Positions 1-21,248 are shown, numbered from the stretch's first letter. The stretch is DNA of 26,032 nt from a virus (IMGVR_UViG_3300042380_000133:1-26032), one strand, 5' to 3'. Program-made: numbers and translations. The notes: generated by a model not told the origin, from the sequence alone.

Positions 1-3000
1 GCGTTCACCGGAGCGAACGCAGGGTTCCCGAGGCCCGTGGTCACGAACCGGAACGCATTGTTCGTAAACCGCAGGGTTTCCTCGAACGCGGTGAGGCTCG
101 GATCCGGGGTGCTGATCGCATCCGCGAGCCTGCGGTTGTTGATGCGGATGATCACGAGGCTTCCATGCTCGTAGTCATGGCCGTTGATCGTGATCGGCGC
201 GTCCACATAGACGCCGAAGTTCCGTGGGTCGCTCGTCCAGTTTGGATCGAGAACCTCCTGAACCTCCTCGCGCAGGCGGATGCGGCCTCCGCCCGGAGCC
301 ATCCCGTACACGGGTCTGACCTGACGGACCATCGGACGAACGACCTCCGCCATGCCGGGATCGTTCACCATCAGCGTCAGGCGCAGGAACCTCTGCGCGA
401 CCTCGTTGCGAGCCACGCGCGAGATCGTGTCCTCGTGGACCATCCCGACCTGCGAGGTGACTCCCTCGGCCATGCTACGCCGACCAAGACGGTTCGGCAT
501 TCCACGGCCCTGCGTCGAGAGGCCACGGCCGAACACCTCTCCGGAGTCCCAGTCCTCGAAGTTCTCATCGAACGGACGGCCCGGAGCGCCTCGAAGCGGA
601 ACATAGTGCGAGTACCGCGTCGTGAGCGTGTTGTACATCTCGTGCGTGATGAGACCAGAATCGCGCCGCAGGAGCAGGCCAGCGCGCAGCATCTGTCGCC
701 AGTCATCCGCGATGCGGTTCATGGTCGCAAACTGCCCCGACGCGAGATGGCGGGAAATCACGGTGTTCGCATCAGCCGTCGTCATTCCGGTGCCGCCGTC
801 AGGCATCGCCGGGTTGATCGTCGCGATGTACGCATTGCCGCCATTGATCGCGTGTTGCGCGATCAGGAACTCGTCCATGTCCTCCATCTCGATGCCGTTC
901 TCGGCCATGTCTCGGAGGATCGAGGAGTACTCGAACTCGGCCTGACGCTGCACGGCGCCGAGACGCCCGGTCAGCGTACGCACGCCGAGATACGGGTTCG
1001 CCATGTCGGGCAACGCAAGACCGCTCGCGCGCTCGAACTGCTCGCCGTACCTGCGCAACTCGTCGTACTTGTCGATGCGGTTGAGAACGAACTCGTCGCG
1101 CACCCCTTGGACGCCCTCGCGCATTGACATCATCGCCGGGACATTGTCCGACCAGATGTGCGAGTACGCGGTGACAACGGCAGGCGGCTCGATGCGCAGC
1201 GATGCGAGGATGTCCATGTTCTTGGTGTCGAACCCGACATCGGTCGCAGACGCCGACTTCACCTGACCAGCCTTCCAGATGATCAGGCTGCTGTTGTCCC
1301 CGACCAGCGCCTTCTGAGCCTCCATGATCTCCCGGTCAGATGCTCCTTCGTTGACTGCTTTCCATTGCCAATACGACGCCATGCGATTCTGTCGATCGTT
1401 GTTCCATTGACGCTGTTCTTCAGAGAACCTCCCTTCCGAAACTGGATCGAACAAGATTTTTCCGTACTCCTCTCTCGGCACCATGAACGGGGACGCCGTG
1501 CGTCCTTCCGCAAAGTTCTGGTATCGGATCGAATCGAATCCGAGGCTCTCGATGAACTCTCGAAGCATGGTTATGCGGATTGCCGGGAAGTCCCGATTCC
1601 TTGGATTGACGCCCCCATACCCCGTTCCCGCGAATACAGGATTGGCGACACCAGCCAACCCATCCTCGACCAAGGTAGGAATGTGGATGCCTTCGACATC
1701 GACCTCCTCGTACATGCGAGTGAGGAACTCGGTGGCTGAATCTCGATCGGTGTGGCCGAAGCGGATCATCGCATTGACGATCTGCTCCAGATACCAAGTT
1801 GTCTTGTCATCGATCTCCATCGGCTTGGACGAACGCACATAGCACGGGAACATCACGCGAGGCGTCGTCTCCGCCGGGTAAAGTTCGGGACTGACGAATG
1901 TACTTGCCTGATGGAAGTTCCCGCAATGCCATCCGAACTGGGATGAGGACTTCTGGTTCGGGTCTGGCCTCGTGTACTCGTGGAGAGTTCCGTGCCACCA
2001 GATGTCATTGGGCTGAATGCCGTTCAGAGCGTTGTCCTTATCCCAGTACTTGACGAAGTTCGGGTGCGACGGCTTGGCCCATTGCCCCCTTACCATGCGC
2101 TTCCATGCCTCGTGGATCTCGTCGTGGTTCGTCGGCGCGACATTGCGAGCCGCAAACAACCGAAGCATGTCAACACGGTGTCGAAGCCACGGCTTCTCAG
2201 CAAGGACGCGGCTGATCGTTTCCTCTTCAGTCTCTCCCCGAGTCACAAGAGATGGTCTTCCAACGATCTTGAGAACCGTCTTGTACGCATTGGTGAACGC
2301 GAGCGGATCTTCCCGCAGGCTCATCATCGTTCCGGAAGAGAACTGCTGCGCGAACTTCTCGATCGCGTCGAGGCCATTCTGTCCGACGAGAGCGTCCTGC
2401 GTCCACGGAGTCTTTCGCTCCTGTCCCGTGCTGCTGTCCTTCGTGACTGAGAACTTCACGGACTTGGGCGCTGGAAGTTTGGCGGCCTTCGCACGGGCCT
2501 TCTCCTTCGCGTTGAACTCGGCAGCGTAATCAAAATCTACCACGCTTGTGATGAACTCGGCGTACCTCTTAGGCTCGAAGCGATAGGTCTTGTCCTTCAC
2601 CGTGTATCGGTACTCCGGCTTCAACCTGCCGGATTCGTCACGCACATACCCGTACTCGGAACCGTACATGTATGTGTCGTATCGGCCTTCCTTCGCGAAG
2701 ATGTCTGCGATCTGCGACTGGCCGTTGTTGATCATCTCGATCAGGCCGTCGAGCGTCTTGTGGGACGCCTCCTGACCGGACGCACCGACCCAGTTCATCC
2801 AATGCTCGAGTCCGTGGCTGATGTACTTGAGGATGTCCGGGCGCTTCTTTGCGAGCGCCGAGAACACATCCGCCGGGTTGATGGTGTTCTCCGCAGCCTC
2901 GTACAGGGCAAGGCCACGGACGCCGTTGAACAGCGTGGCAAGGCCAGCGATCTTGATCGGGACGATCTCGATGCTCGACTTCGCCCACCTCTTGATCGCG

Positions 3001-6000
3001 GCATTCAGGATCGCCAGACGCTTCTTCTTGTCGTCGATCTGCTCCAGATCCGGAATCGGGATGTCGGCATTCTCCTGCTCGATCAGACGCTGGCGGATCT
3101 CCGCTGGAACCTTCGTGTCCTTCTTGATCTTCCTGATCACCGATGCCTTGCGCTTCGCCTCGGCAGTCGCTGCTGCAAACTCGGCGGCAGCGGCCTCCGG
3201 ATCCTTCGCCAGAAGGTTCTTGACGGAGGCTTCCGCCTTCGCCTGCTCCTGCTCGTAGTACGCTTCGTATTCCTCGCGGCTCGACAGGTCGGTTGGGAAC
3301 TGCGCCGGAATGTAAGTCTCACCAACGACCTGACCTTCACGGAGAATCTCGTAGCCGCTCGTAAACCCGTCGTAGATGTTCGGGATTCGTCCGTCTCGGT
3401 TGTAGTGATCGTTGATGCGCACACGGTCGTTGACCGAGATGTCGTCCTTTCCAGCGACGAGAGCAGCAAATCCGACTACCTTGTTGTCGATGCCGAGCGA
3501 GCCTCCGAGCGCGTTGAAGATCCGGCGGAGCGCACGGCCAGTCACCTTCGGATCCGCCATTGCATTGTGGAAATGTTGGAGTCCGGACAGCGTGACGCCG
3601 CCAACAGTCACGACGCGCGAGATGTTCGCGAGGAAGTTGCGCCCGAACGCATTCGCGTTGTGCTTTGCACCGCTTCCCGGAGATCCGTTCTTCTCGGAGA
3701 GTTCACCAGTCTCAGGATTGATGAGCGCATCGATGTCCACGAACGCAAGTTCCTCGAACATCTCGCTGACCCAGTTCTCCCACTCCTTGTTGTGTACGGT
3801 GGTGGACCACGCACCGCTCATCGCGATGTCCACGAAGTACCCGAGTCCGCGCCCCGACTTGTTCGTGTAGTTCACAAGATCGAGGAACAGGCTTTCCTGA
3901 ATCTGCGGCGACACGCCGCGACTCATGAATCCCCACATCGCGAGCGCGACGGTGTGCTTTGGGAGAGCCTTTCCAGCCGCATACAGGGCGCGGAGTTTCG
4001 CAGCCATCTCCATGCCGTGAATGGCTTCATCGACCATCTTTCCGGTCAGTCGTCCGCCATCCTCGATGAGCGACAGGTCTCGCTTCATGCGCTCGAACCC
4101 GTTCCTCACGGACTCGATGAATGCGGTCGGCAGTAGAGGGATGGTCCGGCTGCCGAAGAGATCGACGAAGAACCTCGATGCCGACTCGACGCTCTCGAAC
4201 GGCTTGGGGTGCCGTTCCAGAATCGCGTCGAGCGCATTGACACTCGCGCCGTAGTTGTCCTTGTTGGTCTTTGCCGGGATCTTCGCGCCGGGTTCGATGT
4301 TCTGGATGTTCCCGTCGTACCGCTGGTTCAGGCGGGCGTCGAGTCCGTTGGCGTTTCGGGCTGCGCGGTCGGCAAGACGGCGGACGAGTTCATCGACGAC
4401 CGTGGCCGCTTCCGAGCCAGCGACTTCTCCGACCCATCCTTCGATGTTGATGTCGAAACCTTCGTCTCGGTATTCCTCGACGACGACGGCAGCAGCGTCG
4501 ATCCAAGGACTCCACGCAGCCACGATGGATTCTGCGTCCAAGACCTTCCGTACTTTGCCATTTCGGCTTCGCTTTCTTCCCAAGACATCGGCGTCTCCAA
4601 TCTTCGAGTAGGTCGATCGGACCTTCGCTTCCTCGATCACCAGACCATGCTTCTTCGCGATGTCCGATGCCGCGCGCACGAACTGCGCCTTAGTCACCGG
4701 ATTGTTCGGTCGGTTCGTGAAGACCGAAACGACGCCTGCATTTCCGGGGATCTCTGATGCGCCTCCGAGGCCAAACCCGGCATCGGAGAGTACTTCCGCC
4801 AGCACCTTCTGGTCAAGCGCGGACCCGTCTTCCTTGAGGAATGCAACGGCGTGGCCCTGCTCTGCACGAGCGGTGCCTTCGGTTGCCTCGCTGGTGACGA
4901 TAACAGCCTCTTGCAGCAGCAGCGATCCGATGAGATTCGCGACCTGCACGGACTGCTCGTGCGAGAGGCCCGGAATCTCGATGCGCATGGTGCGCTCGGT
5001 GACCCCGTTGTAGTTTCCGAGAACCGTCTTGATGTTCTTCGACGCGAGCGGAGAGATGCCCGGAATCGTGTCGAGAAGCGACACGACCTTCAGCGCAAAC
5101 TCCTTGCTTGTGGCCGTGTCGAGGATGCGCTCGTGAGCGCGCTGATACGCCTTGTCCTGCGAGAAATCCGGATCGTTGGACACGGATCCGACGATGATGT
5201 TCGGATTGATCATCGGTGCCGCAGTAGGCGCCGTGCTGACGGAGATCGCCGGAGCCGCCCCGGTTTGCGCAACCTTGCGAACGATCTTGCCTCGCTTCTC
5301 GGCAGCCTTCTTCTGAGCGGCAGCCTTCTCGCGCGCGATCTTCGCTTCCTGACGACGCTGCGCTGCGCTGGTCTTCCGCGCCTTCTGAGCCGGAGTCTCG
5401 GCGCGCTGCGAATACATCATTCGATTGTCGGATGCGCTTGGGTTGGCGTTGAAGTACCCCTTGACCTGATTCGGATCAAAGGCAACCCAAAAATCTCCGC
5501 GAGAACGGCCAATCGCGTCGTATCCGTTTTCACCCTTTACATGCACTCCATCGAATCCGGCATCGCGAAGCGCCTGATGGACTGCGGGATTGATGTCGCC
5601 ATATTCGTCCTGCTGAAAATCGTTGAACTCCTTGCCAAGGACATCGAGCGCCTTTCGGATGTACTGCTCTCCAATCCCGGCATCAACCACGAGCGGGTTC
5701 TTGATGTTGGCGACAAGAGGTATGACCTTTGAACCAAACCCCTCGCCCGCATACCTCCCGGCTCTGCCGTAATCCGTCGCAAGGTAGATACCCGGTCCAT
5801 ACGATCCACCCTCAGATGCCCTAAATGTGTCGAAGTCAGCGTCCGTCCCGTGGTACATGGGAATCAGGGATCCTGATTCATCAACAACCGTCGAACCACG
5901 GCTCCAGACCTTCATTGCCGGAGCCATGTCTTCCTGCGCCACAGGTCGCAGCGACATCTGCGCCTGATCTCCTTCGCGCTGCGAGTACAGGGACAGCAGT

Positions 6001-9000
6001 TCGTCGGGCATCGCAAGCGGCTTCTGTGGGCCAAAGTTCTTGCCATCCTTGAACCCGGCAAGCCACTTCTTGTACCGAGGATCGCGCTCGCCCCAGACAG
6101 ACCCGTCAGGGTTGCGCCGATTCGGACCGTAGTTCACCCACGAGTTCTGGGCGCGCGTCTCGGTACCCATCGCCCTGCGGGCGAGCGGCGAGAACATCAC
6201 GGCATGGCTGCGGTAAGCGCCCTCCTCGCCGCGAGGCCCGAACTGGTAGCCCTCCGATGCATGGCCGAAGATGTCATGCACCGCACGGAAGATGTCGTTG
6301 ACCGTCTGCGTGTACGGATCACCGTTCGAGTCATCGACCGTTCCGCCAGCCTCTTGCAGCAGCGGGTTGCGCTGAAGAAGTTCCTGCATGGCAGCAGGGT
6401 CGGAACCGAACGACGACGACTCCTCGGGATTGACGCTCTTGTAGTAGAAGATGCGCTTGTTCTTGCGCACATCATCGACCATGTCGGCGCTGTTGGCGTA
6501 CGGCTCGCCCTTCCCGGCCCACGGGATCATCTCGTAGCCCTGCTCGCGGAGGAACTCGTACTGATCCACGGTCTCCTGCGCGAACTGGTCGTAGGCGCGC
6601 AGCATCTCCGGGTCTTCGTAGTTGGCCGGGGTGTTCTCCAGCCAGTCAGCGACCTTCTTGGCAAACTCCTCGTCGATCTGCGGGTAGGTGTCCTCGATGC
6701 GCTGCTCAGGCTCGATGCCACGCGAGCGCATGAACTCGTTGCGCAGGGACCGAATGTCCTCGTTCGGAGCCTGTCGGCCCGGACGATCCGGCAGCGAGTA
6801 CGAAATCTCCTCTTCCGGAGTCTGGTACAGAGACCGGGCGCGCTCGATGCGCGCGACGGTGCCGAGATCGACTGGCTCGGTCGGCGCCTCTCCCCTGATG
6901 ATCGCCATCGCCTGCTGTGCGTTGCGCTGGCGTCGGGCCGTGTCCTCGATCTGCTGCGCAGTCTCCGAGACAGGCTGGGCTGCGGGCTGGGCCACATCGC
7001 GCATCTGCTCCGGGATCTGACGCCGTCCGAGCGGGGCGCGCTGCGGAGCGGTGACGCCGGAACTGACCTGCGCAAGGGTGCTGGTCAGGTACGGAACGAC
7101 CTCGGCGAGTGCGCCAAGTGCGCTGGCAGCAAGTCCAGACGCCTGCGGATCTGCGGTCATCGACTCGATCGTGCTGATCGCATTCGAGATCTTGCGCTTG
7201 TCGTCGTCTCCGCCGACTGGAGCGACAGGGATGCCGCCCGCGCCATCGCGAAGAGACGGGGAGACACCGCCAGCGGGAGGAGCCGGAGGGGCCGGAGGAG
7301 TAGAAACGCCCGTCGATGGTGTTGCGGACGGGGCGGGTGCAGTCGCAACGCCTGCCTGTTGCATGGTGGCGCGCGCGGCCTCCTTGCGCGCGATCTCGTC
7401 CATGTCCTTCTTCACGGACTCCGAGACTCGGTCGGAGAACCGACGATGGATCTTGATCTCCTCCTCGCGAACTCCGCGCAGCCGCTGCTGAATCTCGTAC
7501 AGCGCCTGCTGCGCCTCAGGACCAGCGAAGCCGTTGCGAACGAGGACATTCGCCATCCACCGAGTGAACGAACGCAGCGACCTTTCCTGCGCGTCCTTGT
7601 AGATGCCGTCCCATTCGGCAGCCATCTGGGTGGCTTGGCCCATAGCACGGTTCGCCGTGGTCGTGACGCTCTCTTCCGAGAACCTGCGGACCTGCGACCG
7701 CGCGGCGTCGTAGCCTCCGGCCTGCTCGACCTGCTGCTGCTGCTCGGTGGTCGCCACGCCAGCCAGAAGCGCGTTCGCAGCCTCGTGAAGGCCACGGTAG
7801 TACGCGATCACCTGCGCGTCGTTCATTCCTTCCAGAGCGGTGATCCCGTTCGCAGCGCCGAACCTGCGCATGTACGACGCGCCTCCGCGCATCGCATACA
7901 CGGGATCGATCTGGAGGAGTCTGGCGAGGAACCGCGCTCCGGCCGGAGAACGGGAGAGTGTGCGGTGGCGCGTCTCGTGCATGGAGATCGCGAACGCGCT
8001 GCGCGCGGTCATCGCCGTGCCGTTCTCGCGCACGAGGAACACGCCGTCCGGAGACGCCTGCGAGACATACGCTCCGTCCATCATCGGAGCCTTCTCGATC
8101 GTCTTGACGGTTCCGTCCTTCTGCTTGATCGAGAACACGACCTTGCCATCGAGGATCGTCGCCTGCTGCCCAGTCGAGCGAATCAGGTTCCGCTCTCCGT
8201 CTGACATGGCATCGGAGGCGACCTCCGAAAGGCTGACCGTGACGCGGACATCGCCGTTCGTCGCGTCACCGATCTCGTCCTTCGTGAGATACGGCGACGA
8301 GAACGGGTCGCTCTTCTTCCCAGACCGGGCCGCCCCTGCTTGGATATCCGTCCGCAGGGCGCGGATTCCACGGGACTTCTGGCCTCGCGGAAGCGCCTTC
8401 TGCTCCTTCAACGGCTTCCCGGCAGCGACAGCGTCTGCGTCCATCTGGCGCCGCAACTGGGCCTCGATGTCCGCAAACCGCTCGCGAGAGCCGTCGTTCA
8501 CGATGCTCAGGGTGAGTCCACGGCGGCGAGCCGTTTCGCGGATCTCCGGCTCCGCTGCCGTCATGTCGGACGGGTTGCTGTACGGGTAGTACTCGACGAT
8601 CTGGCCTGCGGCATTCTTCAGGACGGCCATTCCGGCAAGCAGGTTCCCGGAGTTGTTGAACGGAGAACCGACGAGGGCCGAGATCTCGCCTTGGTTGATC
8701 GAGTCCTCGGCCTGCTGGACCGCTCCCACCGGAGCGTAGACGCGCTTTCCGTTGACGACGCCGATGTGCTTCGTCGAGATTCCGACACGCTCCATGCGCT
8801 CCTTGACCTCCGGGGTCAAGGTCACATCGACATCGGCCTGATCGACGAACATCACCATGCGGTTGCCGTTCGCCATCTCCTCGACATGGGCCATCGCCAT
8901 GACCGAGCCGCGCGTAGGCATCGCGTTGCGCTGCCACGCTTCCGTGGCGTTTCTGGTGACGGTTGTTCCGCTCGTCTGCACCGACTGCGAGAGCAGGCGC

Positions 9001-10538
9001 TGCTTGGCGTCCGACTCCTGCGCCATCATCATGGCCTCGGTGACGAACCCGGTTCCGCGCATCACCTCGGCGCGGTCTCGCAGGAATCGCGCCGCCTTCG
9101 GAACGGAGCCAACAGCCTGAACGCCGCCTCCCATGAGGATTCCCGCGTACGAGCCGACCTTGAACGAATGGCGGACATTGTCTGCGAGATACAGCCCAGT
9201 CGGTCCGGCCTCGGCGTCGAAGAACTTGCTGTCAACGGTCCAGAAGTCGTTGTTGCGCTCGAACCACCAGTTCTTTCCGTATTCGACTCCCTCGGCCACC
9301 TGAGTTCCGACCAGAGCGCCAACCTCTTCCGCGCCTTCAGTCAGTCCTCCGCCGACGACGGCCGTCGCTCCCTTTGCGACACCGAGCAGGCCACGGCGTC
9401 GGTTCATGCTGTCGGCAAGGCCGTTCAGCAGGTCGCGAACACTCTGGGGTCCGCGCCGGATCTTGGCGTTGCCCTTGCCGAGTCCGAACTTGATCAAGCC
9501 GACCTGCGCCGTGTCGCCCGCAAACTCGGAACCGACCTCGAATGCGGCGTGGATTCCTCCCCATGTTTCCAGTTCGCCGAGCGTGGGGACGGGAGGAGGC
9601 TCGATGCCGAGTTGCTCTGCAAGAGCCGCCTGCTCCTCGTAGATGCTGTAACGCTCCTGCTTGGCGCTTCCGTATGCGCTGATTCCAAACGGTGCCATTG
9701 CGACCGCTCGCACAGCCTTGTTCGGTGCAAGCATCGACGGGACGCTCATCGGAATCGATGCGAGCGCCTGACCGACATTTCCAGCCTCCTCTGTGAGGAT
9801 TGCTCCAGCACGGACTCCGGCAATGTCGATCGCCGGAGGACCGACACGCTCGGATGCCATCACGGGCTTGCCAACCGGGCCAGCAATCTCTTCCGCGTAA
9901 CCCGGAGAGATTCCCTCTCCTGTGGTCATATACCGAGCAAACTCGGCGCCCTTCTGCTGTGCCTGCTTCATTCCGGCCATCTGCTGCATGACGCGCGCAG
10001 ACCCGCCTTCGGAATCCCACATCGCGCCGTTCGGGCCATAGGTGTCCCACAGAGAGTATCCGCCAGCGGCAAGAGACCCAGCCATACCTTCGAGGCCGAC
10101 GAGTGCGTTGCCGAGGAACGAATCAATCACAGGCTTGGCAACGCCACGGTCCTGTGCCTGCTTCCACTCGTCCCACTTGATGGGCTTCAGACCCTTGGTG
10201 AACTGGTCCGCTCGAAGGCGCGCAAACTCGTCGGCATTGACACGGTCCTGCTCGTCTCCACCGTGATCCAACTGGTATGCGCCGCCGAGACTGGCAGCAT
10301 CGGCTTCGTTCTCAATGAAGCGGACGCCCTTCATACCCTTAGCCAGAATGCCCTTCAGGCTCATCTGGTACGCATAGTCCCATGCGCGGTCAGTCGCTCC
10401 GTCAGAAGCAGAAGAGATCGCATCCGATGCTTCCTGCGAATCGAGACGGATGCCACGGCTGAGAAGATCGGACTTGGCCCGATCGATCTCCTGCTGGCGA
10501 AACTGCTCGATGTTCGTGATGGGAGGCGTATTCATCAT
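1..10538 (-). CDS. Giant large-polyvalent-type protein, putative virion internal/ejection protein, at least 3512 aa, 3' end outside the window. Zincin HExxH, HDxxGH domain, two ART-like domains, HhH glycosylase-like domain, LPD38-type C-terminal module
   Basis: ATGATG at 10538 preceded by GAGGA (10541-10545), next to the upstream gene's TGA. No ORF-track entry terminates in this frame between 1 and 10538, and the segments I translated by hand are open (MMNTPPITNIEQFRQQ...FTNNAFRFVTTGLGNPAFAPVN). Motifs: HETRH 7965-7979, HDIFGH 6261-6278, MYHGT 5844-5858, LGIDNKVVGFAALVAGKDDISVNDR 3423-3497, WWHGT 1986-2000, YVPLRG near 590-607. It is the last and largest gene after the nozzle and small ejection genes. 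Confidence 0.9.
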   Translation of the reverse strand, partial: MMNTPPITNIEQFRQQEIDRAKSDLLSRGIRLDSQEASDAISSASDGATDRAWDYAYQMSLKGILAKGMKGVRFIENEADAASLGGAYQLDHGGDEQDRVNADEFARLRADQFTKGLKPIKWDEWKQAQDRGVAKPVIDSFLGNALVGLEGMAGSLAAGGYSLWDTYGPNGAMWDSEGGSARVMQQMAGMKQAQQKGAEFARYMTTGEGISPGYAEEIAGPVGKPVMASERVGPPAIDIAGVRAGAILTEEAGNVGQALASIPMSVPSMLAPNKAVRAVAMAPFGISAYGSAKQERYSIYEEQAALAEQLGIEPPPVPTLGELETWGGIHAAFEVGSEFAGDTAQVGLIKFGLGKGNAKIRRGPQSVRDLLNGLADSMNRRRGLLGVAKGATAVVGGGLTEGAEEVGALVGTQVAEGVEYGKNWWFERNNDFWTVDSKFFDAEAGPTGLYLADNVRHSFKVGSYAGILMGGGVQAVGSVPKAARFLRDRAEVMRGTGFVTEAMMMAQESDAKQRLLSQSVQTSGTTVTRNATEAWQRNAMPTRGSVMAMAHVEEMANGNRMVMFVDQADVDVTLTPEVKERMERVGISTKHIGVVNGKRVYAPVGAVQQAEDSINQGEISALVGSPFNNSGNLLAGMAVLKNAAGQIVEYYPYSNPSDMTAAEPEIRETARRRGLTLSIVNDGSRERFADIEAQLRRQMDADAVAAGKPLKEQKALPRGQKSRGIRALRTDIQAGAARSGKKSDPFSSPYLTKDEIGDATNGDVRVTVSLSEVASDAMSDGERNLIRSTGQQATILDGKVVFSIKQKDGTVKTIEKAPMMDGAYVSQASPDGVFLVRENGTAMTARSAFAISMHETRHRTLSRSPAGARFLARLLQIDPVYAMRGGASYMRRFGAANGITALEGMNDAQVIAYYRGLHEAANALLAGVATTEQQQQVEQAGGYDAARSQVRRFSEESVTTTANRAMGQATQMAAEWDGIYKDAQERSLRSFTRWMANVLVRNGFAGPEAQQALYEIQQRLRGVREEEIKIHRRFSDRVSESVKKDMDEIARKEAARATMQQAGVATAPAPSATPSTGVSTPPAPPAPPAGGVSPSLRDGAGGIPVAPVGGDDDKRKISNAISTIESMTADPQASGLAASALGALAEVVPYLTSTLAQVSSGVTAPQRAPLGRRQIPEQMRDVAQPAAQPVSETAQQIEDTARRQRNAQQAMAIIRGEAPTEPVDLGTVARIERARSLYQTPEEEISYSLPDRPGRQAPNEDIRSLRNEFMRSRGIEPEQRIEDTYPQIDEEFAKKVADWLENTPANYEDPEMLRAYDQFAQETVDQYEFLREQGYEMIPWAGKGEPYANSADMVDDVRKNKRIFYYKSVNPEESSSFGSDPAAMQELLQRNPLLQEAGGTVDDSNGDPYTQTVNDIFRAVHDIFGHASEGYQFGPRGEEGAYRSHAVMFSPLARRAMGTETRAQNSWVNYGPNRRNPDGSVWGERDPRYKKWLAGFKDGKNFGPQKPLAMPDELLSLYSQREGDQAQMSLRPVAQEDMAPAMKVWSRGSTVVDESGSLIPMYHGTDADFDTFRASEGGSYGPGIYLATDYGRAGRYAGEGFGSKVIPLVANIKNPLVVDAGIGEQYIRKALDVLGKEFNDFQQDEYGDINPAVHQALRDAGFDGVHVKGENGYDAIGRSRGDFWVAFDPNQVKGYFNANPSASDNRMMYSQRAETPAQKARKTSAAQRRQEAKIAREKAAAQKKAAEKRGKIVRKVAQTGAAPAISVSTAPTAAPMINPNIIVGSVSNDPDFSQDKAYQRAHERILDTATSKEFALKVVSLLDTIPGISPLASKNIKTVLGNYNGVTERTMRIEIPGLSHEQSVQVANLIGSLLLQEAVIVTSEATEGTARAEQGHAVAFLKEDGSALDQKVLAEVLSDAGFGLGGASEIPGNAGVVSVFTNRPNNPVTKAQFVRAASDIAKKHGLVIEEAKVRSTYSKIGDADVLGRKRSRNGKVRKVLDAESIVAAWSPWIDAAAVVVEEYRDEGFDINIEGWVGEVAGSEAATVVDELVRRLADRAARNANGLDARLNQRYDGNIQNIEPGAKIPAKTNKDNYGASVNALDAILERHPKPFESVESASRFFVDLFGSRTIPLLPTAFIESVRNGFERMKRDLSLIEDGGRLTGKMVDEAIHGMEMAAKLRALYAAGKALPKHTVALAMWGFMSRGVSPQIQESLFLDLVNYTNKSGRGLGYFVDIAMSGAWSTTVHNKEWENWVSEMFEELAFVDIDALINPETGELSEKNGSPGSGAKHNANAFGRNFLANISRVVTVGGVTLSGLQHFHNAMADPKVTGRALRRIFNALGGSLGIDNKVVGFAALVAGKDDISVNDRVRINDHYNRDGRIPNIYDGFTSGYEILREGQVVGETYIPAQFPTDLSSREEYEAYYEQEQAKAEASVKNLLAKDPEAAAAEFAAATAEAKRKASVIRKIKKDTKVPAEIRQRLIEQENADIPIPDLEQIDDKKKRLAILNAAIKRWAKSSIEIVPIKIAGLATLFNGVRGLALYEAAENTINPADVFSALAKKRPDILKYISHGLEHWMNWVGASGQEASHKTLDGLIEMINNGQSQIADIFAKEGRYDTYMYGSEYGYVRDESGRLKPEYRYTVKDKTYRFEPKRYAEFITSVVDFDYAAEFNAKEKARAKAAKLPAPKSVKFSVTKDSSTGQERKTPWTQDALVGQNGLDAIEKFAQQFSSGTMMSLREDPLAFTNAYKTVLKIVGRPSLVTRGETEEETISRVLAEKPWLRHRVDMLRLFAARNVAPTNHDEIHEAWKRMVRGQWAKPSHPNFVKYWDKDNALNGIQPNDIWWHGTLHEYTRPDPNQKSSSQFGWHCGNFHQASTFVSPELYPAETTPRVMFPCYVRSSKPMEIDDKTTWYLEQIVNAMIRFGHTDRDSATEFLTRMYEEVDVEGIHIPTLVEDGLAGVANPVFAGTGYGGVNPRNRDFPAIRITMLREFIESLGFDSIRYQNFAEGRTASPFMVPREEYGKILFDPVSEGRFSEEQRQWNNDRQNRMASYWQWKAVNEGASDREIMEAQKALVGDNSSLIIWKAGQVKSASATDVGFDTKNMDILASLRIEPPAVVTAYSHIWSDNVPAMMSMREGVQGVRDEFVLNRIDKYDELRRYGEQFERASGLALPDMANPYLGVRTLTGRLGAVQRQAEFEYSSILRDMAENGIEMEDMDEFLIAQHAINGGNAYIATINPAMPDGGTGMTTADANTVISRHLASGQFATMNRIADDWRQMLRAGLLLRRDSGLITHEMYNTLTTRYSHYVPLRGAPGRPFDENFEDWDSGEVFGRGLSTQGRGMPNRLGRRSMAEGVTSQVGMVHEDTISRVARNEVAQRFLRLTLMVNDPGMAEVVRPMVRQVRPVYGMAPGGGRIRLREEVQEVLDPNWTSDPRNFGVYVDAPITINGHDYEHGSLVIIRINNRRLADAISTPDPSLTAFEETLRFTNNAFRFVTTGLGNPAFAPVN
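1194..2070 (-). other. ADP-ribosyltransferase-like domain 2 within the giant ORF (ART-PolyVal-like)
   Basis: DIWWHGT...QFGWHCGNFHQA...VMFPCYVRSSKPMEI...LGFDSIRYQNFAEG...SSLIIWKAGQVKSAS...GFDTKNMDILASLR follows the HGT / P.YL...P / G.D.I.Y.N..E / ..F.P.QIKS motif series of polyvalent-protein ARTs. Confidence 0.7.
2330..4300 (-). other. HhH-GPD DNA glycosylase-like domain within the giant ORF (boundaries approximate)
   Basis: LGIDNKVVGFAALVAGKDDISVNDR has the HhH hairpin with Lys (3480-3482) and Asp (3426-3428) 18 residues apart, as in E. coli EndoIII K120/D138. Upstream WGFMSRGVSPQIQESLFLD and downstream GLEHWMNWV helices. Confidence 0.55.
5403..5925 (-). other. ADP-ribosyltransferase-like domain 1 within the giant ORF (ART-PolyVal-like)
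   Basis: STVVDESGSLIPMYHGTDADFDTF...GSYGPGIYLATD...AGRYA...KVIPLVANIKNPL...LRDAGFDGV...FWVAFDPNQVKGYFN...DNRMMYSQR is a close match to the typical ART-PolyVal signature. Confidence 0.85.
5995..6760 (-). other. Uncharacterised putative metal-binding domain (HDxxGH...GEE) within the giant ORF
   Basis: VNDIFRAVHDIFGHASEGYQFGPRGEEGAYRSHAVMFSPLARRAMGTETRAQNSWVNYGP...FGPQK: motif-dense globular segment bounded by linker motifs. Confidence 0.55.
7640..8250 (-). other. Zincin-like metallopeptidase domain (HExxH) within the giant ORF
   Basis: Beta-strand-like DGAYVS...GVFLVREN, then AFAISMHETRH (HExxH at 7965-7979), and a downstream FSEESV (EE at 7671-7676) that could supply the third ligand. Confidence 0.6.
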
Positions 10539-10543: not shown

Positions 10544-11749
10544 TCAGATGTCTTCCAGACCGGACGGTGCGGGGACTGCGGTCGGCTGCGCGGCCTGCGG
10601 CTGCATGGGCTGCGCCTGCTGCGCCGATGCATTTGCGGCGTTGGACATGACCAACTGCTGCATCATCATGTCAATGCTCTGCGGGCTGGAGTAGTCCCAT
10701 TTCAGGGCGCGGGACGCCCAAGCATCCAGACGAGTCAGGTACTCGCGGAACTTGGCGACCTCGGCGGGGTTGACCTTGACCTGCGCGTTCGGGTTGAACG
10801 CCGGAGGATCCTGCCACGAGACGCTCTCGGGCCAGACGCCGCTGTAGGCCGCGAGGTGCCGGAGCATGTCGAACTGCGAGAGCGGGCCGATGTCGGCTCC
10901 CTGCATGGCCGTGATGTCGAGGAACCCAACAGGCTGGCCGTTGATCTCCGGAGACGCCTTGAACCCCTTCGGGGGCATCAGCGATCGGTAGTTCTGCAAG
11001 GCGTATGCAGAGACCTTCTTGCGCTGATCCGGATCCTTCGACAGTTCAGACACGCGCTTCTGGATGGGCGTGGTCTTAATCGGATCTCCGTATCCGTTCG
11101 GGTTCGGCTCGTATACCGTCGATTCCAGCATCGACTCGACGGACGAGACCGCAGAGTCTTGCAACAGCGATCCGAGCCTGTTCGACTGGGACCGACCGTT
11201 GTCCTTCGCCATCGATGCCAGCAGGTCCGATGTCTCGCGCATCGCAAGACCGGGATCGGTGTCGGCGATGGTCATCAGCAGATTGCCAAGTTGCGGAGGA
11301 ACGCTCGGCGCCGACGCAAGAATCCGCTGGATTCCCTGCTTCGCGCGGTCGCGCTCGATGTCGAACATCATCTGCTGCTTGACCTGCTCGCGCGTACGGT
11401 TGCGCTGCGTCAGCAGGGCCATCCATTGATCGTGGCGGATCGGTACATCGGCGCCGTTGATCTTGATAGCCGGGGTGCCGTCCTCGAAGAACCCGAGATC
11501 GAAGGTCTCCATGCCGACAGGATCACCGTCCACGATCCCCGACATCGTGAGATCGAAGTCGTTGACATTGGACGCTCGCCCCTTCGAGTCATTGGCAAGG
11601 CGCCTCGCGAACGCCTCGGCATCGGACATCTGGGACGAGACATTGGCCGGGGAAGGACCGCTGGGCTGCTGGGGTATGTACGACCCTCCGGATACAGCCT
11701 CTGCGGAAACAGGCTCTGGAACCTGCTGCTCGGTCGTCCCGTCGATCAT
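10544..11749 (-). CDS. Putative internal virion/ejection protein, 401 aa
   Basis: ATGA overlap with the upstream gene. Helical Gln/Met-rich protein with Pro/Gln-rich termini, directly before the giant ORF. Function inferred from synteny only. Confidence 0.6.
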   Translation of the reverse strand: MIDGTTEQQVPEPVSAEAVSGGSYIPQQPSGPSPANVSSQMSDAEAFARRLANDSKGRASNVNDFDLTMSGIVDGDPVGMETFDLGFFEDGTPAIKINGADVPIRHDQWMALLTQRNRTREQVKQQMMFDIERDRAKQGIQRILASAPSVPPQLGNLLMTIADTDPGLAMRETSDLLASMAKDNGRSQSNRLGSLLQDSAVSSVESMLESTVYEPNPNGYGDPIKTTPIQKRVSELSKDPDQRKKVSAYALQNYRSLMPPKGFKASPEINGQPVGFLDITAMQGADIGPLSQFDMLRHLAAYSGVWPESVSWQDPPAFNPNAQVKVNPAEVAKFREYLTRLDAWASRALKWDYSSPQSIDMMMQQLVMSNAANASAQQAQPMQPQAAQPTAVPAPSGLEDI

Positions 11750-12444
11750 CGCCCACTCTCCTCTGAGTCATACCAAGTCTGCGTGTAGCGATCAAAGTTT
11801 CTGCCCGTGCGCTTTGCCTTCTTCGGCTGCTGTTCCTTGAACGACGGGTCTACCTTCCCCATCGGCGTGTATTCGGTCGGCTGTCCGCGATACGGATCGG
11901 CAACATCGAACTCCTCGCGGTCAAGCGCCGGATCCGGAGCGTCATCGTACACATTGACAGGAGACCTTCCGCTCGTTGTCTCGACATACTTGCCGAGGGT
12001 CTTCCACCAGTCCTGTTGCCAAGGCGACTCGGAAACAGCCTTGGCATCACGCATGGCGTCGGCAATCGACTTGAACTGACCACGGCTTTCCTTCTCGCGA
12101 GCCTGCTGGCGCTTGTAGAGCGTCTCCTCGGTTTCGAGTTGCTGCTCGGACTCGGCCTTGCGCTCGCGCTCCCTCATCGCCTCGATGCGCCCCTCGCGGT
12201 CCTTCATGGACTGTTCGGCGCGCTCCTCGCGGTCGGCCAGCGCCTTCTCGGCACGGTCCAAATCCTCAAGACGCTGCTTGCGCTCTTCGGCTCGCATGTC
12301 GCGGGTCATGCCGCTCGCGATCGTCGCCTCCAACGCAGCACCAGCGCCAGCGAACGGATTGTTCGGGTCGTACGCTTGGAAGCCGCGACCGATTCCGAGT
12401 CCGATGTCGCGGAGTTGGTCGCGTGAGAAAAGTGGCTTATCCAT
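11746..12444 (-). CDS. Putative internal virion/ejection protein, coiled coil, 232 aa
   Basis: N-terminal Gly-rich segment (DIGLGIGRGF...NPFAGAGAAL) followed by an E/R/K-rich coiled coil. Overlaps both neighbours; syntenic with podovirus ejection genes. Confidence 0.6.
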   Translation of the reverse strand: MDKPLFSRDQLRDIGLGIGRGFQAYDPNNPFAGAGAALEATIASGMTRDMRAEERKQRLEDLDRAEKALADREERAEQSMKDREGRIEAMRERERKAESEQQLETEETLYKRQQAREKESRGQFKSIADAMRDAKAVSESPWQQDWWKTLGKYVETTSGRSPVNVYDDAPDPALDREEFDVADPYRGQPTEYTPMGKVDPSFKEQQPKKAKRTGRNFDRYTQTWYDSEESGR

Positions 12445-13393
12445 AGTTCATCCCGTAGTTGAGGAACGATCCCTGTCCTCCGAAGTACTGCTGCGCTGCT
12501 CCGGCATATGAACCGGGCGCAGCCATTTGCGATGCCGGGTTGACATTCTGCATGGAACTCATTGCGCCAGTTCCCGCACCAGCCGCAGCACCTCCGAGTC
12601 CGGCACCGAGGAACGCTCCGCCGATGGAACCCATCGCGCTTCCCGCAGCGTTCAGGCCAGCACCCGCAAGTTGAGCCGCCTGACCTTGGAACTGCACGGC
12701 AGCCGAGACGCCCTGACCGCGCAGGCCAAACTCCGCAGCAATTCCCTGCTGTCGGTACATCGCAAGGTTCGTCGAGTAGGTCTGGTACATGTTCGACAGC
12801 GTGTTCGCCTGCTGCTGGCTGAGAGCAGACAGACCGGAACCCATCTGTGTCGAAAGCGTGGACATGCCAGCGGCGCGCTGCGCTTCGAGATTCGAGAGTC
12901 CCGCTGCATACTGCTCGCGGATCGCGCCTTCCTGAAGAGCGCCTTGAATCCCGATGCCCTCGACGCGGGCAGCACCGAAAGAAGACTGGCCGAGTCCGGT
13001 GAACGCATTGCGGGCAGTCGCGGCCTGCTGCTGGCGAGCGACGGTCTGGCGCAGCATCGCGATGCTCGATTCACGGCCAGTCCGGTACTCGCCAAGAGCG
13101 CGCTCCATCCCCGTCGCGTACTCGGATCGAGCCTGCTCGAAGTACCGAGAGAAGTCCTCGCGAGTGCGAGCCATCTCCTCGCGGTACAGCGCCATGTTCT
13201 TGTCGCGGTCTTCCTTGAACTTGCCCATCGCGCCACGGAATCTGGTCTTGTATTGACCAGCGAGATCCTCGAACTCGGCAAGTGCAACCTGACCAGCCTG
13301 CTCAAGAGCAGAGCGTCGCGCCTTTGAACCAATAGCGGACGCCGTAGCGCCTGCTCCGATGAGACCGATTCCGATTGCGGCGAATACTGCCAT
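12437..13393 (-). CDS. Putative DNA ejection/pilot protein (positional analogue of P22 gp7 / T7 gp14), 318 aa
   Basis: Hydrophobic Gly/Ala-rich N-terminus (MAVFAAIGIGLIGAGATASAIG), central Gln/Ala coiled coil with ARNAFTGLGQSSFG, Gly-rich hydrophobic C-terminal segment. TAATG coupling to the nozzle gene. Confidence 0.7.
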   Translation of the reverse strand: MAVFAAIGIGLIGAGATASAIGSKARRSALEQAGQVALAEFEDLAGQYKTRFRGAMGKFKEDRDKNMALYREEMARTREDFSRYFEQARSEYATGMERALGEYRTGRESSIAMLRQTVARQQQAATARNAFTGLGQSSFGAARVEGIGIQGALQEGAIREQYAAGLSNLEAQRAAGMSTLSTQMGSGLSALSQQQANTLSNMYQTYSTNLAMYRQQGIAAEFGLRGQGVSAAVQFQGQAAQLAGAGLNAAGSAMGSIGGAFLGAGLGGAAAGAGTGAMSSMQNVNPASQMAAPGSYAGAAQQYFGGQGSFLNYGMNYG

Positions 13394-15663
13394 TACGAAC
13401 CTCCCCTACTCTTGCCGACCTGAGCAAGCACCGCAGACATCCGCTCGACGGACCAAGGACGGCCATCTGCGGCGACCGTCATAAACATGGCCTCTGACCT
13501 GATCCTGCACCGCTTTGCGTTGTTGCGGCCCGGATCGAGTTGGCCGATCTCGAACACCTGCGATGTCGGGAACGACGCGCCAGAGATGTTCGCATTGTCC
13601 GGATCTCGGCCAATCGGGTTCTGGATGTTGCTGACCATCAGGCTGTTCAGCCCGTCCTCGTCGGCGACGACCTGCTTGTACTCGACCTCGTAGACCGTGG
13701 GGCCAGTACTGATGATCCGCTCGATCGTCCAAGCATCCGGAGTCAGCGCGGTGTCGTACCGGATGATGAAGTCTCCCGGTCCGTCGTACACGCGGGACGA
13801 GCCGCTGGCGAAGATGTCGTTCTGCTGGTATTCGCCGAACGGACGGATCGCAAACCGACCATCGATCCTGTTTGTTGGCGAGGAAGACGACGCTCCGCCT
13901 CCGTCATACAGAGGACTCGCCGGAGCAAGTTGCGCGCTTCCGCAGGCGATCTCGATGGCATTGATGTTGATCGCGTACAAGGCATCGGTCTGAAGACCTA
14001 CGGCCGACTGGGCCGTTTCTCCGGTCGAGACAATGATGACGGGCTTCTGGCTGTAGTCGGTGTACGGAAACTCGTACTTGTCATCCGCCATGTCCACGCG
14101 GATCTCGTTCAGCATGAGCCTGTACGGCAGAGGAGCGATGAACGGGCCGACCGTGAGGCTGGAGCGGACAAACTGCGCCCGCTGCTTCTCCTCGGTCATC
14201 TCCTCCTCGTTCGTCCAGCCATCGATGCCGACAGGAATGGCACGATCAAGGATGGATATCGACTGGAGTCCGCCCATGAATAGCCGCCCGCTGGCCGTAC
14301 GGCTCGGACCCGTGTACACGGCGGTTGTCGGCGCGTAGCAGAGCGGATCGCTGAACCTCTGGGGCCAGAACGAGTTTGTCTTCCCGTCGTAGTACAGGTG
14401 GACGCTTGCCTCTTCGATTCCTGACACCGAGAGAAAGATCCAAACACCTTCGCGATCTGGATCCCAGCAAAGGCACGGGAAGATCGACCCTGTGGACTGC
14501 CCGCCAATAAGCGCCGAAACGGTTCCTGCAACTTCGATGGATTCCGGGATGGACTCGACAATGGATCCCTGATCGACGATCTCTGTCGGAGATCCGCTTC
14601 CGGATCCCACTCCACGCAGAGTTCCTCCGGCCAAGATTCCGGATCCTCCGGTGGCAGGTGTGCCGAAGTCAAGCCGAAGGAAGAACGAGTCGAGTTTCCC
14701 TGCGGAGATCCGGTTTGCGCGGTTGAAGTTGAAGTCGTTGGCCTGCAAGTAGTACAAGCCGTCGTTCGCCAGTATGTACGCGCTCTTCTCCTGACCAAAG
14801 CACCATGCGCGCCTTCCGGCGATGCCGATGCTGTTGGTCAGGCTGACCATCTGCACCTCTCCGCCGCTCGTTTCGAACAGCGGATCTCCGGTGAGGAACG
14901 CAAACGAGTTCGTGCAGGCGAACATCAGCCCGCTCTGCGCGAACGGGAAGATCGCAACGATCGGGTCACCAAGCGTTCCGTACTCCGCCGATACGGCTGC
15001 ACCAACTGCTCCGATGACTTCAGATGCATCCCACCCGTCATTGCCTGAACCTGTCGCTGCAACCAAGTCCGGGGCGCAGGCATACCACACATTCGGAGTC
15101 TGCTTGAACCCGCTGAGAACGACGCGGGCGCCCCATCGGCAGATCAGGGTTGCACGGTTTCCGCTTGGGCTGGATGCCGGATCAAGGTGATACGGACCCT
15201 TGTGCGTTCCTGTAGGACTTCCCCAGATGCTCGCTCCTGTCGTCGTGTCCGTCAGAAGCACCTTGACATACGAGATGCCATCCACGAAGTAGAAGTACTC
15301 GTTGAACTGGACACCCTCGACAAGGCCAGTCGTCGCAAGCAGCGCGGAAGACTGTCCGGGATACAGGTTCGCCGTTGCAGGGAGCGACGAGTTCGGATCG
15401 CTCCAGTACACCTTGCCGCCGCGCACGAAGATGATGCGCTCGACGAGCGTTCCTCCGATGTACGCGCGGAATGTGTCCATGAACTGGACATCGCCGAGGT
15501 TGTACTGAAGGATCCCGTTCCTAGTTCCGATCCTCGTCCGTCCGTTCCACACATCGGACGGCATCACATTCAGGCAGGACAGCGTCGTTCCGGGCGGCAC
15601 CTGACTGAAGGCGCTCTGCTCGACGAACCCGCCGAATGGAAGTTGGATCTGGATGTGCGTCAT
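13393..15663 (-). CDS. Tail nozzle / packaged-DNA stabilisation protein (P22 gp10 / T7 gp12-like), about 756 aa
   Basis: Start moved to ATG 15663 (ATGA overlap with the fibre stop). N-terminal LPFGG...P......CLNV...RIGTRNG pattern, beta-rich repeats (GDPIVAIFPF; NSIGIAGRRAWC; AYILANDGLYYL), size and position fit a podovirus nozzle. Confidence 0.75.
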   Translation of the reverse strand: MTHIQIQLPFGGFVEQSAFSQVPPGTTLSCLNVMPSDVWNGRTRIGTRNGILQYNLGDVQFMDTFRAYIGGTLVERIIFVRGGKVYWSDPNSSLPATANLYPGQSSALLATTGLVEGVQFNEYFYFVDGISYVKVLLTDTTTGASIWGSPTGTHKGPYHLDPASSPSGNRATLICRWGARVVLSGFKQTPNVWYACAPDLVAATGSGNDGWDASEVIGAVGAAVSAEYGTLGDPIVAIFPFAQSGLMFACTNSFAFLTGDPLFETSGGEVQMVSLTNSIGIAGRRAWCFGQEKSAYILANDGLYYLQANDFNFNRANRISAGKLDSFFLRLDFGTPATGGSGILAGGTLRGVGSGSGSPTEIVDQGSIVESIPESIEVAGTVSALIGGQSTGSIFPCLCWDPDREGVWIFLSVSGIEEASVHLYYDGKTNSFWPQRFSDPLCYAPTTAVYTGPSRTASGRLFMGGLQSISILDRAIPVGIDGWTNEEEMTEEKQRAQFVRSSLTVGPFIAPLPYRLMLNEIRVDMADDKYEFPYTDYSQKPVIIVSTGETAQSAVGLQTDALYAININAIEIACGSAQLAPASPLYDGGGASSSSPTNRIDGRFAIRPFGEYQQNDIFASGSSRVYDGPGDFIIRYDTALTPDAWTIERIISTGPTVYEVEYKQVVADEDGLNSLMVSNIQNPIGRDPDNANISGASFPTSQVFEIGQLDPGRNNAKRCRIRSEAMFMTVAADGRPWSVERMSAVLAQVGKSRGGS

Positions 15664-16874
15664 CCGATTCGAGCCATGATCCACACATGCCTAGTCGTTT
15701 CCTGTGCGCTGCCGAGGATGTCGTTGCCAGAATCATTGCCAACAGCGGCGCTGCACGGGTTTGCCTGATTGAACAACTTGATCTGGAACAGCCCGTTGGC
15801 GGTGTTGAACATGAACACCACTCCAATCCAAAGACCATTGTCAGGCCACAGACGAGGAGCCACGCTCCCAGACCCGAACCTCGTGTTCCATTGAATCGCT
15901 GCTGCGGCATCAAAGGTAGTGACCGGAGACGGAGCCGTTCCTGCCTGATTACCGAACGAGAGCAACGGCCTGCTTTGACTCGGATATGCGAATGGAGATA
16001 CAGGCTGGTATCCGAACAACTGTGCAAGCGGGATTGCGTCAAGGGCTTCAAGAGCATCCTTGACATCCTTGATGTTGTTCGTCCCGAGATCCACATTGCC
16101 GCTGAAGTTGGCTCCGCTGTGGAACACGGCGAAGTTCTGGGGAACAACGGCCGTCGAGTCCAAAGTCAGTTGCGCCGTGCCTCCAGCCGTGAACGCGATC
16201 TTGTCTGCGGCTGGAAAGTAGACTCCCGTATTGGTGTCTCCGGTAGTCGTGATGATCGGAGCAGACACCGTTCCCGCCTGCACGGTCACGATGTCGGCAT
16301 TTGCGTTTCCGAGAATCGTCGGTCCGTTGATGGTCGTTGTTCCATCCACGACAAGCGCGCTTGCCCCGGTGTCCTTGAGCGTAAGGCTCTTTGCCGTGAG
16401 TTCGACGCCTTCCGTTGCGCTCACGCCCCAGACATTCTGGGCGACCCAAGCCCGCCAAGTCCCGCTGTCGTACATGCGCGAATACGACTTCTGAGGCTGG
16501 GTTCCATCGCTGTCTGTCCAGAGGTTCTGAAGAACCTGATTGGATGCGAACTCCAGCACCAGCATGTTGAGTCCGCCATCGGCGGTCTTGATGTCGATGG
16601 GCGCAGACGGAGCATTGCTGATGCCAGCGATCCCGCTCCATCTGTAGACGCCTTGAACTCGGTTCGTCGCATCATTCAGGTCCGTCGCCGGGGATGAGAA
16701 GACCGGAAGAGTCCCGCCAAGGAACCGAAGGCTGGTCCAGATCGTCGATCCATCTCCGATCTTGATCTGGTTCAAGGTCGTGTCGATGCCGATCTCGCCT
16801 TCGGCAAGCGTGGCTACCGGGGCTGTTGCCCAGTTTGCACTCGTGTCTCGACGGATCTGGATCTTCGCGGTCAT
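15660..16874 (-). CDS. Tail fibre / receptor-binding protein with Mtd_N-like N-terminal domain, about 404 aa
   Basis: Start ATG 16874 (ATGA overlap). MTAKIQIRRDTSANW...LAEGEIGIDTTLNQIKIGDG is the Mtd_N / hyaluronidase N-terminal signature. Then a knob-like segment (DLND...GVYRW...SNAP...YSRMYDSGTWRAW) and a fibre motif (GTVSAPIITTTGDTNTGVYFPAADKIAF). Confidence 0.85.
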   Translation of the reverse strand: MTAKIQIRRDTSANWATAPVATLAEGEIGIDTTLNQIKIGDGSTIWTSLRFLGGTLPVFSSPATDLNDATNRVQGVYRWSGIAGISNAPSAPIDIKTADGGLNMLVLEFASNQVLQNLWTDSDGTQPQKSYSRMYDSGTWRAWVAQNVWGVSATEGVELTAKSLTLKDTGASALVVDGTTTINGPTILGNANADIVTVQAGTVSAPIITTTGDTNTGVYFPAADKIAFTAGGTAQLTLDSTAVVPQNFAVFHSGANFSGNVDLGTNNIKDVKDALEALDAIPLAQLFGYQPVSPFAYPSQSRPLLSFGNQAGTAPSPVTTFDAAAAIQWNTRFGSGSVAPRLWPDNGLWIGVVFMFNTANGLFQIKLFNQANPCSAAVGNDSGNDILGSAQETTRHVWIMARIG

Positions 16875-17119
16875 TCGTGCGGCCCTTCGACAAAGGAGGG
16901 TGGAACCATGTACCACCCCTCCGGGATCTCAACCTCGTTCGGCGTCAGACGCCACTCGTTCTCGATCAGCGTGTACACCCGGCCCCTGAACGACGGACCC
17001 GCCCGAACCGGGTCGGTCTCGCGGATCAGCACCGCGCGACCGCAGCCACTCGCGCACCCGAGAACCAGCGCGAGAAAGCCGCCCATCGTCGCCATCAGGA
17101 TCGACCGCCACGGAACCAC
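16871..17119 (-). CDS. Putative o-spanin (Rz1-like lipoprotein), 74-82 aa
   Basis: VVPWRSILMATMGGFLALVLGCASGC|GRAVLIRETDPV: hydrophobic signal with lipobox-like ASGC, Pro-rich mature part, overlapping the preceding ORF in another frame. Start is uncertain (GTG 17119 or ATG 17095). Confidence 0.6.
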   Translation of the reverse strand: MVPWRSILMATMGGFLALVLGCASGCGRAVLIRETDPVRAGPSFRGRVYTLIENEWRLTPNEVEIPEGWYMVPPSFVEGPHE

Positions 17120-17186
17120 GCTCGATGCGATTCTCAAGCCACGAGAACAGCGCGAGAGCAATCTGGGCGACGATCCGTTCGAGCAT
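16929..17186 (-). CDS. Putative i-spanin (Rz-like), 85 aa
   Basis: GGAGG RBS before ATG 17186. N-terminal hydrophobic helix MLERIVAQIALALFSWL. Follows the holin and overlaps the lipoprotein ORF. Confidence 0.5.
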   Translation of the reverse strand: MLERIVAQIALALFSWLENRIERGSVAVDPDGDDGRLSRAGSRVREWLRSRGADPRDRPGSGGSVVQGPGVHADRERVASDAERG

Positions 17187-17220
17187 GATGCCTCCGGGTA
17201 CCAGTCGTCGTATCCGTCGT

Positions 17221-18456: not shown

Positions 18457-18461
18457 GCAAG

Positions 18462-18491
18462 CGGGTGGCCGTGGTTCCCCACGGCCACCCG
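18462..18491 (-). terminator. 13-bp perfect GC-rich hairpin after the capsid/decoration genes (terminator, attenuator or mRNA stabiliser)
   Basis: cgggtggccgtgg (18462-18474) / ccacggccacccg (18479-18491), with a GGAA tetraloop on the minus strand. U-tract is weak (CTTGC), ending 5 nt before the adaptor ATG. Confidence 0.6.
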
Positions 18492-21247: not shown

Positions 21248-21248
21248 T

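Follow-up and report, generated by a model that had tools for sequence, protein, structure and literature searches.

A giant LPD38-type polyvalent protein of an uncultured podovirus with recurrent junction tags and a putative Ogg2-fold glycosylase among its candidate cargo domains

Polyvalent (ejection) proteins of the LPD38 type were already described in 2017 by Iyer et al. (PMC5512222). The parts of that paper available to us present chains with many unrelated enzyme domains, including ART-PolyVal, zincin-like and LPD38 domains, encoded in a virion-gene context, and predict their injection and their processing by the zincin. According to the available portion of a preprint on phage phi24B (bioRxiv 10.64898/2026.04.10.717836), a protein with the domains LPD5, LPD1, MuF-C and LPD38 (gp47) was found in virions by proteomics and proposed as an ejection protein. 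Here we describe a giant gene on the minus strand (positions 3–10538) of IMGVR_UViG_3300042380_000133:1-26032, a viral DNA of 26,032 nucleotides (nt) that was analysed over its whole length and is called the window below. On balance, we favour the view that its product, an LPD38-type polyvalent protein of about 4,030 residues from an uncultured podovirus, would be packaged, ejected ahead of the DNA and cut at short junction tags, freeing its enzymes.

The frame comprises 3,512 stop-free codons, in agreement with the original prediction of an uninterrupted minus-strand frame of at least 3512 codons, runs off the contig end and is listed as '3open'. The window is the whole contig, so the gene cannot be extended from this assembly; the source is a linear virus record with an estimated completeness of 63%, about one third of the genome being missing. 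An upstream stop is followed by GAGGA and then by two ATGs, of which the second is the start in the closest relative and probably the true start here (nt 10535). The protein search returned 31 matches in 2,261 candidates. Of these, 24 were family members (21 of 3,794–4,111 amino acids (aa) and 3 partial), all with LPD38. A profile of this family yielded no useful match among PDB sequences. P0002 (4,039 aa) is 94% identical, aligns across all 3,512 residues and continues for 517 aa more, which contain LPD38 (Pfam, E 5e-38). Judged by these relatives, the full-length protein would have about 4,030 residues, with ~517 aa missing at the 3′ end, beyond the contig. The gene had been called hidden; it is an ordinary gene truncated by the assembly, concealed only by the contig end, and P0002 is its ordinary full-length counterpart. 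Long antisense frames (e.g., 8340–10694, plus strand) were taken as shadows of GC-rich coding DNA. The motifs named in the original prediction (LTEGAEE, HETRH, the Pro/Ala linker, HDIFGH, YHGT, K2353/D2371, WWHG, YVPLRG, LGRRS and NPAFAPVN) were all located at the expected places. The predicted architecture was likewise borne out, with the zincin as a candidate domain, and an S-adenosylmethionine (SAM)-lyase-like domain, the junction tags and a swappable slot had been missed.

The gene is the last of a podovirus virion operon, as identified from Pfam and PHROG matches of its neighbours. As expected for a polyvalent protein encoded among virion genes, its product joins two ARTs, an HhH fold, a zincin motif and an HDxxGH domain in one chain. 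Together with LPD38 and ART-PolyVal, this position bears out the predicted large polyvalent protein at the podovirus ejection locus. The novelty of the concept had been overstated, since Iyer et al. had already published in 2017 the model of an injected multi-enzyme protein processed by a zincin. In contrast to the protein described here, the available main text of PMC5512222 mentions neither linkers nor lyases, nor a DNA glycosylase as cargo, and no cleavage motif was seen there; the supplementary domain lists fall outside this comparison.

The C-terminal region is homologous to phi24B vb_24B_48 (28% over ~770 aa, E 6e-66), which contains LPD5, LPD1, MuF-C and LPD38 and which we take to be the gp47 of the preprint (2,807 vs 2,811 aa). 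Because this homologue occurs in virions, the giant protein would very probably be packaged and ejected in the same manner. Both giant proteins are encoded by the last gene of a podovirus virion operon and have LPD38, HExxH motifs and tags at their joints, tag-like YSR in phi24B. The cargo differs: the phi24B protein has LPD5, LPD1 and MuF-C, and neither an ART nor a glycosylase, HDxxGH or SAM-lyase-like domain was detected there. In the window, aa 3148–3512 (3..1097; minus strand, as for all parts of the protein below) form the start of a conserved C-terminal module leading to LPD38, with the motifs YVPLRG (3312), LGRRS (3351) and NPAFAPVN (3505–3512). This module matches phrog_616 and phrog_14770 (E ~1e-21) and was matched in 331 of 50,697 phage records, vb_24B_48 included. 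At the other end, a Gly/Ala-rich, partly hydrophobic region (aa 1–530, 8949..10538) with LTEGAEE at ~400 is 30–60% conserved in the family and has no match in Pfam or PHROG. The N- and C-terminal regions would serve as a conserved ejection scaffold, in which the N-terminal part may be a conduit or anchor.

Between these ends, the protein is a modular chain with tags in its linkers, and modules are exchanged between tags. Eight junction tags, [MAYFP]-S-[LMQ]-R/P, were located within 1125..7256, with the Ser at aa 1095, 1248, 1519, 1529, 1710, 2740, 3113 and 3138 (nt 7254, 6795, 5982, 5952, 5409, 2319, 1200 and 1125); a Pro/Ala linker lies at aa ~1065–1100. The pattern [MAYF]S[LQMI]R, chosen after looking, has six occurrences in P0001, where shuffling gives a mean of 0.64. 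As an independent test, a matrix trained on the joints at 2740, 3113 and 3138 was run on 25 sequences over residues 1–2,700; of its 125 top-five matches, 87 fell at 1095, 1248, 1519/1529 or 1710, and 25 were scattered. Eleven other window proteins scored at most 6.3. Scaffold, capsid and portal carry no tag, which makes a prohead-protease site unlikely, and a DNA repeat or recombination site was ruled out because the codons differ.

Similar boundaries were observed outside the family. For ART cassettes (40, reduced to 29 by keeping one from each cluster), flanks were more alike within than between proteins (p 5e-5) and also exceeded random windows in likeness (p 5e-5, whether or not one duplicated case was included). 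Two tag classes were distinguished there, F/Y/M-S-x-R/K/P and L/F-x-Q. Tags also followed the zincin motif among those glycosylase carriers whose flanks were long enough (92 of 146), a test uncorrected for kinship and fragments: a tag upstream of the glycosylase was present in 23/45 proteins with the zincin motif and 8/47 without it (Fisher p 8e-4), and downstream in 20/45 and 10/47 (Fisher p 0.026), against a background of 0.15–0.17 per 65-aa window. The tag count was 6 in phi24B against 2.1 expected, with YSR at three joints, and 5 against 2.05 in Vibrio 1.205.O. In an unbiased k-mer count over 65 unrelated large proteins, tag-like repeats (FSPK, FSRA, YSRG, FSRR, FSIK) stood at or near the top in a minority only; the tag is therefore degenerate and not universal.

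The candidate protease is a zincin-like domain at aa 745–1055 (7374..8306). H854, E855 and H858 (HETRH, 854–858) and E956, i.e., the HExxH helix and a downstream Glu after a beta-sheet, are present in 22 of 22 covering sequences. The motif claimed in the original prediction stood; as a zincin, the domain is a candidate, with the profile results given below. Release by the protein's own peptidase is suggested indirectly, by the junction tag.

The cargo includes two ARTs, both of which had been predicted correctly. ART-1, an ART-PolyVal domain (aa 1553–1699, 5442..5882) between the tags at 1529 and 1710, passes Pfam (E 2e-22) and shows the motifs YHGT (1562), GIYL and FDG. Its slot is swappable: an ART is present in 10 of 24 covering sequences and three unrelated small modules, mostly tag-bounded, in the other 14 (7, 6 and 1). 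In P0025 (residues 1421–1916, L011), the slot holds two units, an ART and another zincin-like domain with HExxH, both with a bounding tag. ART-2 (aa 2846–3097, 1248..2003) has the ART-PolyVal fold with two large inserts, because of which Pfam misses it; a profile of ARTs from outside the family recovered it (hhalign 98.9%, E 1.5e-17; hmmsearch 3e-11). WWHG (2847), H2849 and D3002 are kept, and His2871 stands where the H-Y-D clade usually has Tyr.

The largest cargo unit is an HhH glycosylase-like domain with an Ogg2 fold (aa 2070–2735, 2334..4331; K2353, D2371, H2579, W2583, H2593). The predicted HhH fold was borne out by structure comparison of the model, the closest folds being 8-oxoguanine (8-oxoG) glycosylases. 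The catalytic-type Lys and Asp are in register with Ogg2 (Lys in 146/146 carriers, Asp in 145/146), the stacking Trp is kept, and the DNA-binding motif of Ogg2 lines up with the HhH hairpin G-I-D-N-K and D-R. The pocket differs. Ogg2 (3N0U, 3FHG, 3FHF, 3KNT) ends in a free C-terminal lysine, whose carboxylate reads the N7-H of 8-oxoG according to the available text of PMC3397491. Residue 207 of all four chains aligns here to the internal H2593, invariant in 146/146, and the next tag lies 147 aa beyond it; by spacing, Ogg2 D194 would correspond to H2579. The domain is also only ~11% identical to Ogg2, double its size and embedded in a phage polyprotein. As described in the available part of bioRxiv 10.1101/2025.10.29.685425, Dag1/Dag2 are HhH glycosylases repurposed for conflict, which destroy DNA containing 7-deazaguanine bases and, like the domain here, have Lys, Asp and a stacking Trp. 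They are host-encoded, stand-alone and antiviral; the likeness, drawn from their description, is one of functional analogy only.

The glycosylase family comprises 471 clusters at 50% identity. Pfam and NCBIfam gave no match on 32 members, its profile found nothing useful among PDB sequences, and the domain had no match in the 50,697 phage records, in keeping with the claim that the domain combination is absent from characterised phages. A variable insert of 75–146 aa inside the domain (window 2949–3356, aa ~2395–2530) is confined to the giant-protein family and absent from compact relatives. The same domain occurs in frames of ~750–800 aa (L026, L027, L029, L030, L033, L038, L042, L046, L059, L064, L065, L073), which are the members easiest to express. 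It was also seen on three metagenome-bin contigs (L104, L105, L106), assigned to Lentisphaeraceae, Opitutae and Acidimicrobiia; these are probably viral contigs caught up in the binning and do not name the host of this phage.

Just ahead of the glycosylase, aa 1775–1990 (4569..5216) form two predicted ferredoxin-like subdomains, the first of which is SAM-lyase-like (G1841, an aromatic residue at 1843, E1848, Q1876). Gly, Glu and Gln were each present in 40 of 40 distinct segments, which were collected with the domain's own profile. The available text on phage SAM lyases (T3 gp0.3, Svi3-3; PMC7877911) and SAM-AMP lyases (bioRxiv 10.1101/2025.04.28.651013) gives the same three strictly conserved residues and the same G-x-aromatic motif on a ferredoxin-like hairpin-helix-strand unit. 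The hairpin is shorter here, with 7 residues from G to E against 13 in Svi3-3, and the unit is joined to another ferredoxin-like one and to the glycosylase, whereas the SAM lyases described there are stand-alone trimers. PF23780 was the top Pfam match (E 0.0056, 17 bits against a cut-off of 28), in one of seven segments and weakly in P0141, and hhalign to the T3 family gave P 0.04–0.4. PDB profile search and the ESM Atlas yielded no useful match, and a search for shorter proteins carrying the aa 1770–2060 region gave nothing useful. No SAM lyase was among the top 50 of two wide VIA fold searches, a result that is not exclusionary as the single-domain model was cut short and lacked strands. The domain was also observed in other large phage proteins outside the family (P0110, P0112, P0117, P0119, P0128, P0181–P0186) and is therefore a mobile cassette too.

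The HDxxGH...GEE domain (phrog_3170; aa 1250–1520, 5979..6791; HDIFGH at 1421–1426) is among the best-conserved parts, found in 24 of 24 family sequences, and is present in 213 cultured-phage records. As a conserved domain it is real; a named family was not found in Pfam, PDB profile search or the ESM Atlas (only unnamed viral clusters). A zincin variant was considered and gained no support (hhalign P 0.26–0.28). The domain accompanies glycosylase-like domains in unrelated phages (L109:2413-4989; L108:249-3378; P0026; L022:6966-10265) and directly precedes the Ogg2-fold domain in L022. It is fused to DUF7178 in P0026 and in Rhodococcus phage E3 gp205, annotated as a structural protein, and adjoins a DUF7178 gene in Gordonia phage Skog. 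From such company, nucleic acid or nucleotides may be its target, with the glycosylase-like domains acting beside it. The giant protein of the cultured Microcystis phage Mel-JY33, annotated 'lysin' (L111:4848-16633), contains an HDxxGH domain and a zincin together with five L-[FYE]-Q tags, two of them just ahead of these domains.

In the mechanism we propose, the tags would, rather likely, be cut sites, and by a narrower preference the zincin would cut them in cis; both steps are read from sequence. Cutting would yield pieces of ~117, 16, 31, 20, 112, 43 and (from P0002) 98 kDa. By analogy with T4 Alt, the two ARTs would likely ADP-ribosylate host macromolecules. From its model, the Ogg2-fold domain would with high likelihood flip out and excise a base via K2353/D2371, and it could nick the abasic site. 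Its substrate might be a non-canonical purine in the DNA of the host or of a competitor, a proposal a little short of even that was made because the position of the Ogg2 8-oxoG sensor is occupied here by an internal His. More tentatively, the SAM-lyase-like domain would drain SAM, blunting restriction-modification or BREX.

Several observations weigh against this scheme. Tag patterns were picked after seeing the data, family members are related, and zincin-less proteins may be fragments. Of the matrix top matches, 13/125 fell at 1850, within the SAM-lyase-like hairpin, and the SAM-lyase-like domain adjoins the glycosylase without a tag between them. In Ruegeria phage 45A6, a zincin motif occurs with no excess of tags (2 vs 2.2 expected). 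For the zincin, Pfam and PDB sequence/profile searches were empty, and hhalign reached 50% (P 1.6e-4) against a partly circular profile of HExxH-selected polyvalent zincins. The SAM-lyase assignment is under every significance threshold. For the glycosylase, an Ogg2 sequence match is lacking (PF22175 without a match in the contig; hhalign P 0.21). Neither structural model, the glycosylase one included, matched a PDB entry in Foldseek at E ≤0.001. When GTDB genomes were searched with the family alignment for a host, none of the 49 pattern matches was confirmed as a relative. The main rival to processing, which we hold unlikely, is that the protein is injected whole, its tags serving as docking or hand-over signals (portal, chaperone, channel threading) and its zincin having a target in the cell wall or among host proteins. 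It is favoured by two tag pairs just 10 and 25 aa apart, more than cutting needs, by N4 vRNAP, ArdC and TraC1, which are transferred uncut despite a zincin (N4 vRNAP being packaged so) in the available text of PMC5512222, and by the phi24B authors, who in the available part of bioRxiv 10.64898/2026.04.10.717836 propose peptidoglycan, not the protein itself, as the metallopeptidase substrate. Against it, tag enrichment follows the zincin motif, both ends of a cassette bear the same protein-own tag, and scaffold, capsid and portal lack the tag. That another protease cuts the tags, either a host enzyme or the product of a phage gene outside the 63%-complete contig, with the zincin as an effector, is very unlikely: about one third of the genome is missing and zincin function is predicted only, but tag and zincin co-occur, and the expected targets of a head-maturation protease are the very proteins without tags.

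The cargo assignment has its own rivals. The glycosylase might be a repair enzyme for oxidised or ring-opened purines gathered by the packaged genome in water, acting before replication; this would fit delivery together with the DNA, the 8-oxoG glycosylases as closest folds and the retained Lys/Asp and stacking Trp. We consider it unlikely, as the free C-terminal carboxylate of Ogg2 is replaced by the invariant internal H2593, and D194 apparently by H2579. Moreover, hosts usually encode their own 8-oxoG repair. That the domain is instead an N-glycosidase of nucleotides or RNA, or transfers bases to modify the incoming phage DNA, is quite unlikely, since Ogg2 scored ~5 Z units higher and the G-I-D-N-K hairpin and D-R keep the register of its DNA-binding motif.

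The virion operon spans 13393..23317 on the minus strand, as defined by Pfam and PHROG matches. It includes the portal (21539-23317), major capsid (19033-20358), cement (18511-19011), SU10-type adaptor (17671-18456) and fibre (15660-16916) genes. A probable scaffold (20372-21292) and a probable nozzle of 763 aa (13393-15684) were assigned by position and size. Three small genes (401, 232 and 318 aa) upstream of the giant gene (10544..13393, minus strand) have no family match in Pfam or PHROG and, by position, may encode small ejection proteins. A terminase fragment is also located upstream on the same strand. Between terminase and portal (window 23547-24875) are small genes: one matches HNH_3 (23547-23846), one encodes an excisionase-like HTH_17 (24412-24627) and one a DUF6321 protein (24615-24875), alongside further short basic frames. 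Past the giant gene, in five relatives examined and read from translations, genes mostly face it; we take these to be replication and recombination genes. Relatives carry a convergent arm of small genes there, some of them common to several relatives and unannotated (L010:23325-23894; L005:24881-25936; L010:26770-27771).

No paper was found that reports junction motifs in polyvalent proteins, or a glycosylase or SAM lyase as part of them, subscription journals and the Iyer supplements (where LPD names may cover them) being outside the scope of the search; in the available main texts of PMC5512222 and PMC9503650, the tag, the glycosylase family and a SAM lyase were not found. A broader generalisation is doubtful, namely that self-processing polyproteins are widely injected by uncultured phages, with a zincin in cis as reader of a junction code specific to each protein, and that a new Ogg2-fold family (471 clusters) with a His/His pocket is one of their common cargoes, removing a modified purine from the DNA of the host or of a rival phage. 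If true, phages would have in it a counterpart to the Dag defence glycosylases, joined here to what would be the first SAM lyase delivered by a virion.

The 2017 prediction of zincin cutting had no cut site named in the available text of PMC5512222, and a tag at known positions makes the question testable. Its counterpart YSR in the cultured phage phi24B, with virion proteomics on record, allows this directly. The glycosylase family is large, without a Pfam or NCBIfam model, and absent from the cultured phages searched; with its invariant active site and altered base pocket, it makes a promising candidate for a base-specific DNA enzyme of a new kind, which could perhaps be used to map modified bases. 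A particle-delivered SAM lyase, if true, would disarm restriction ahead of any phage gene expression.
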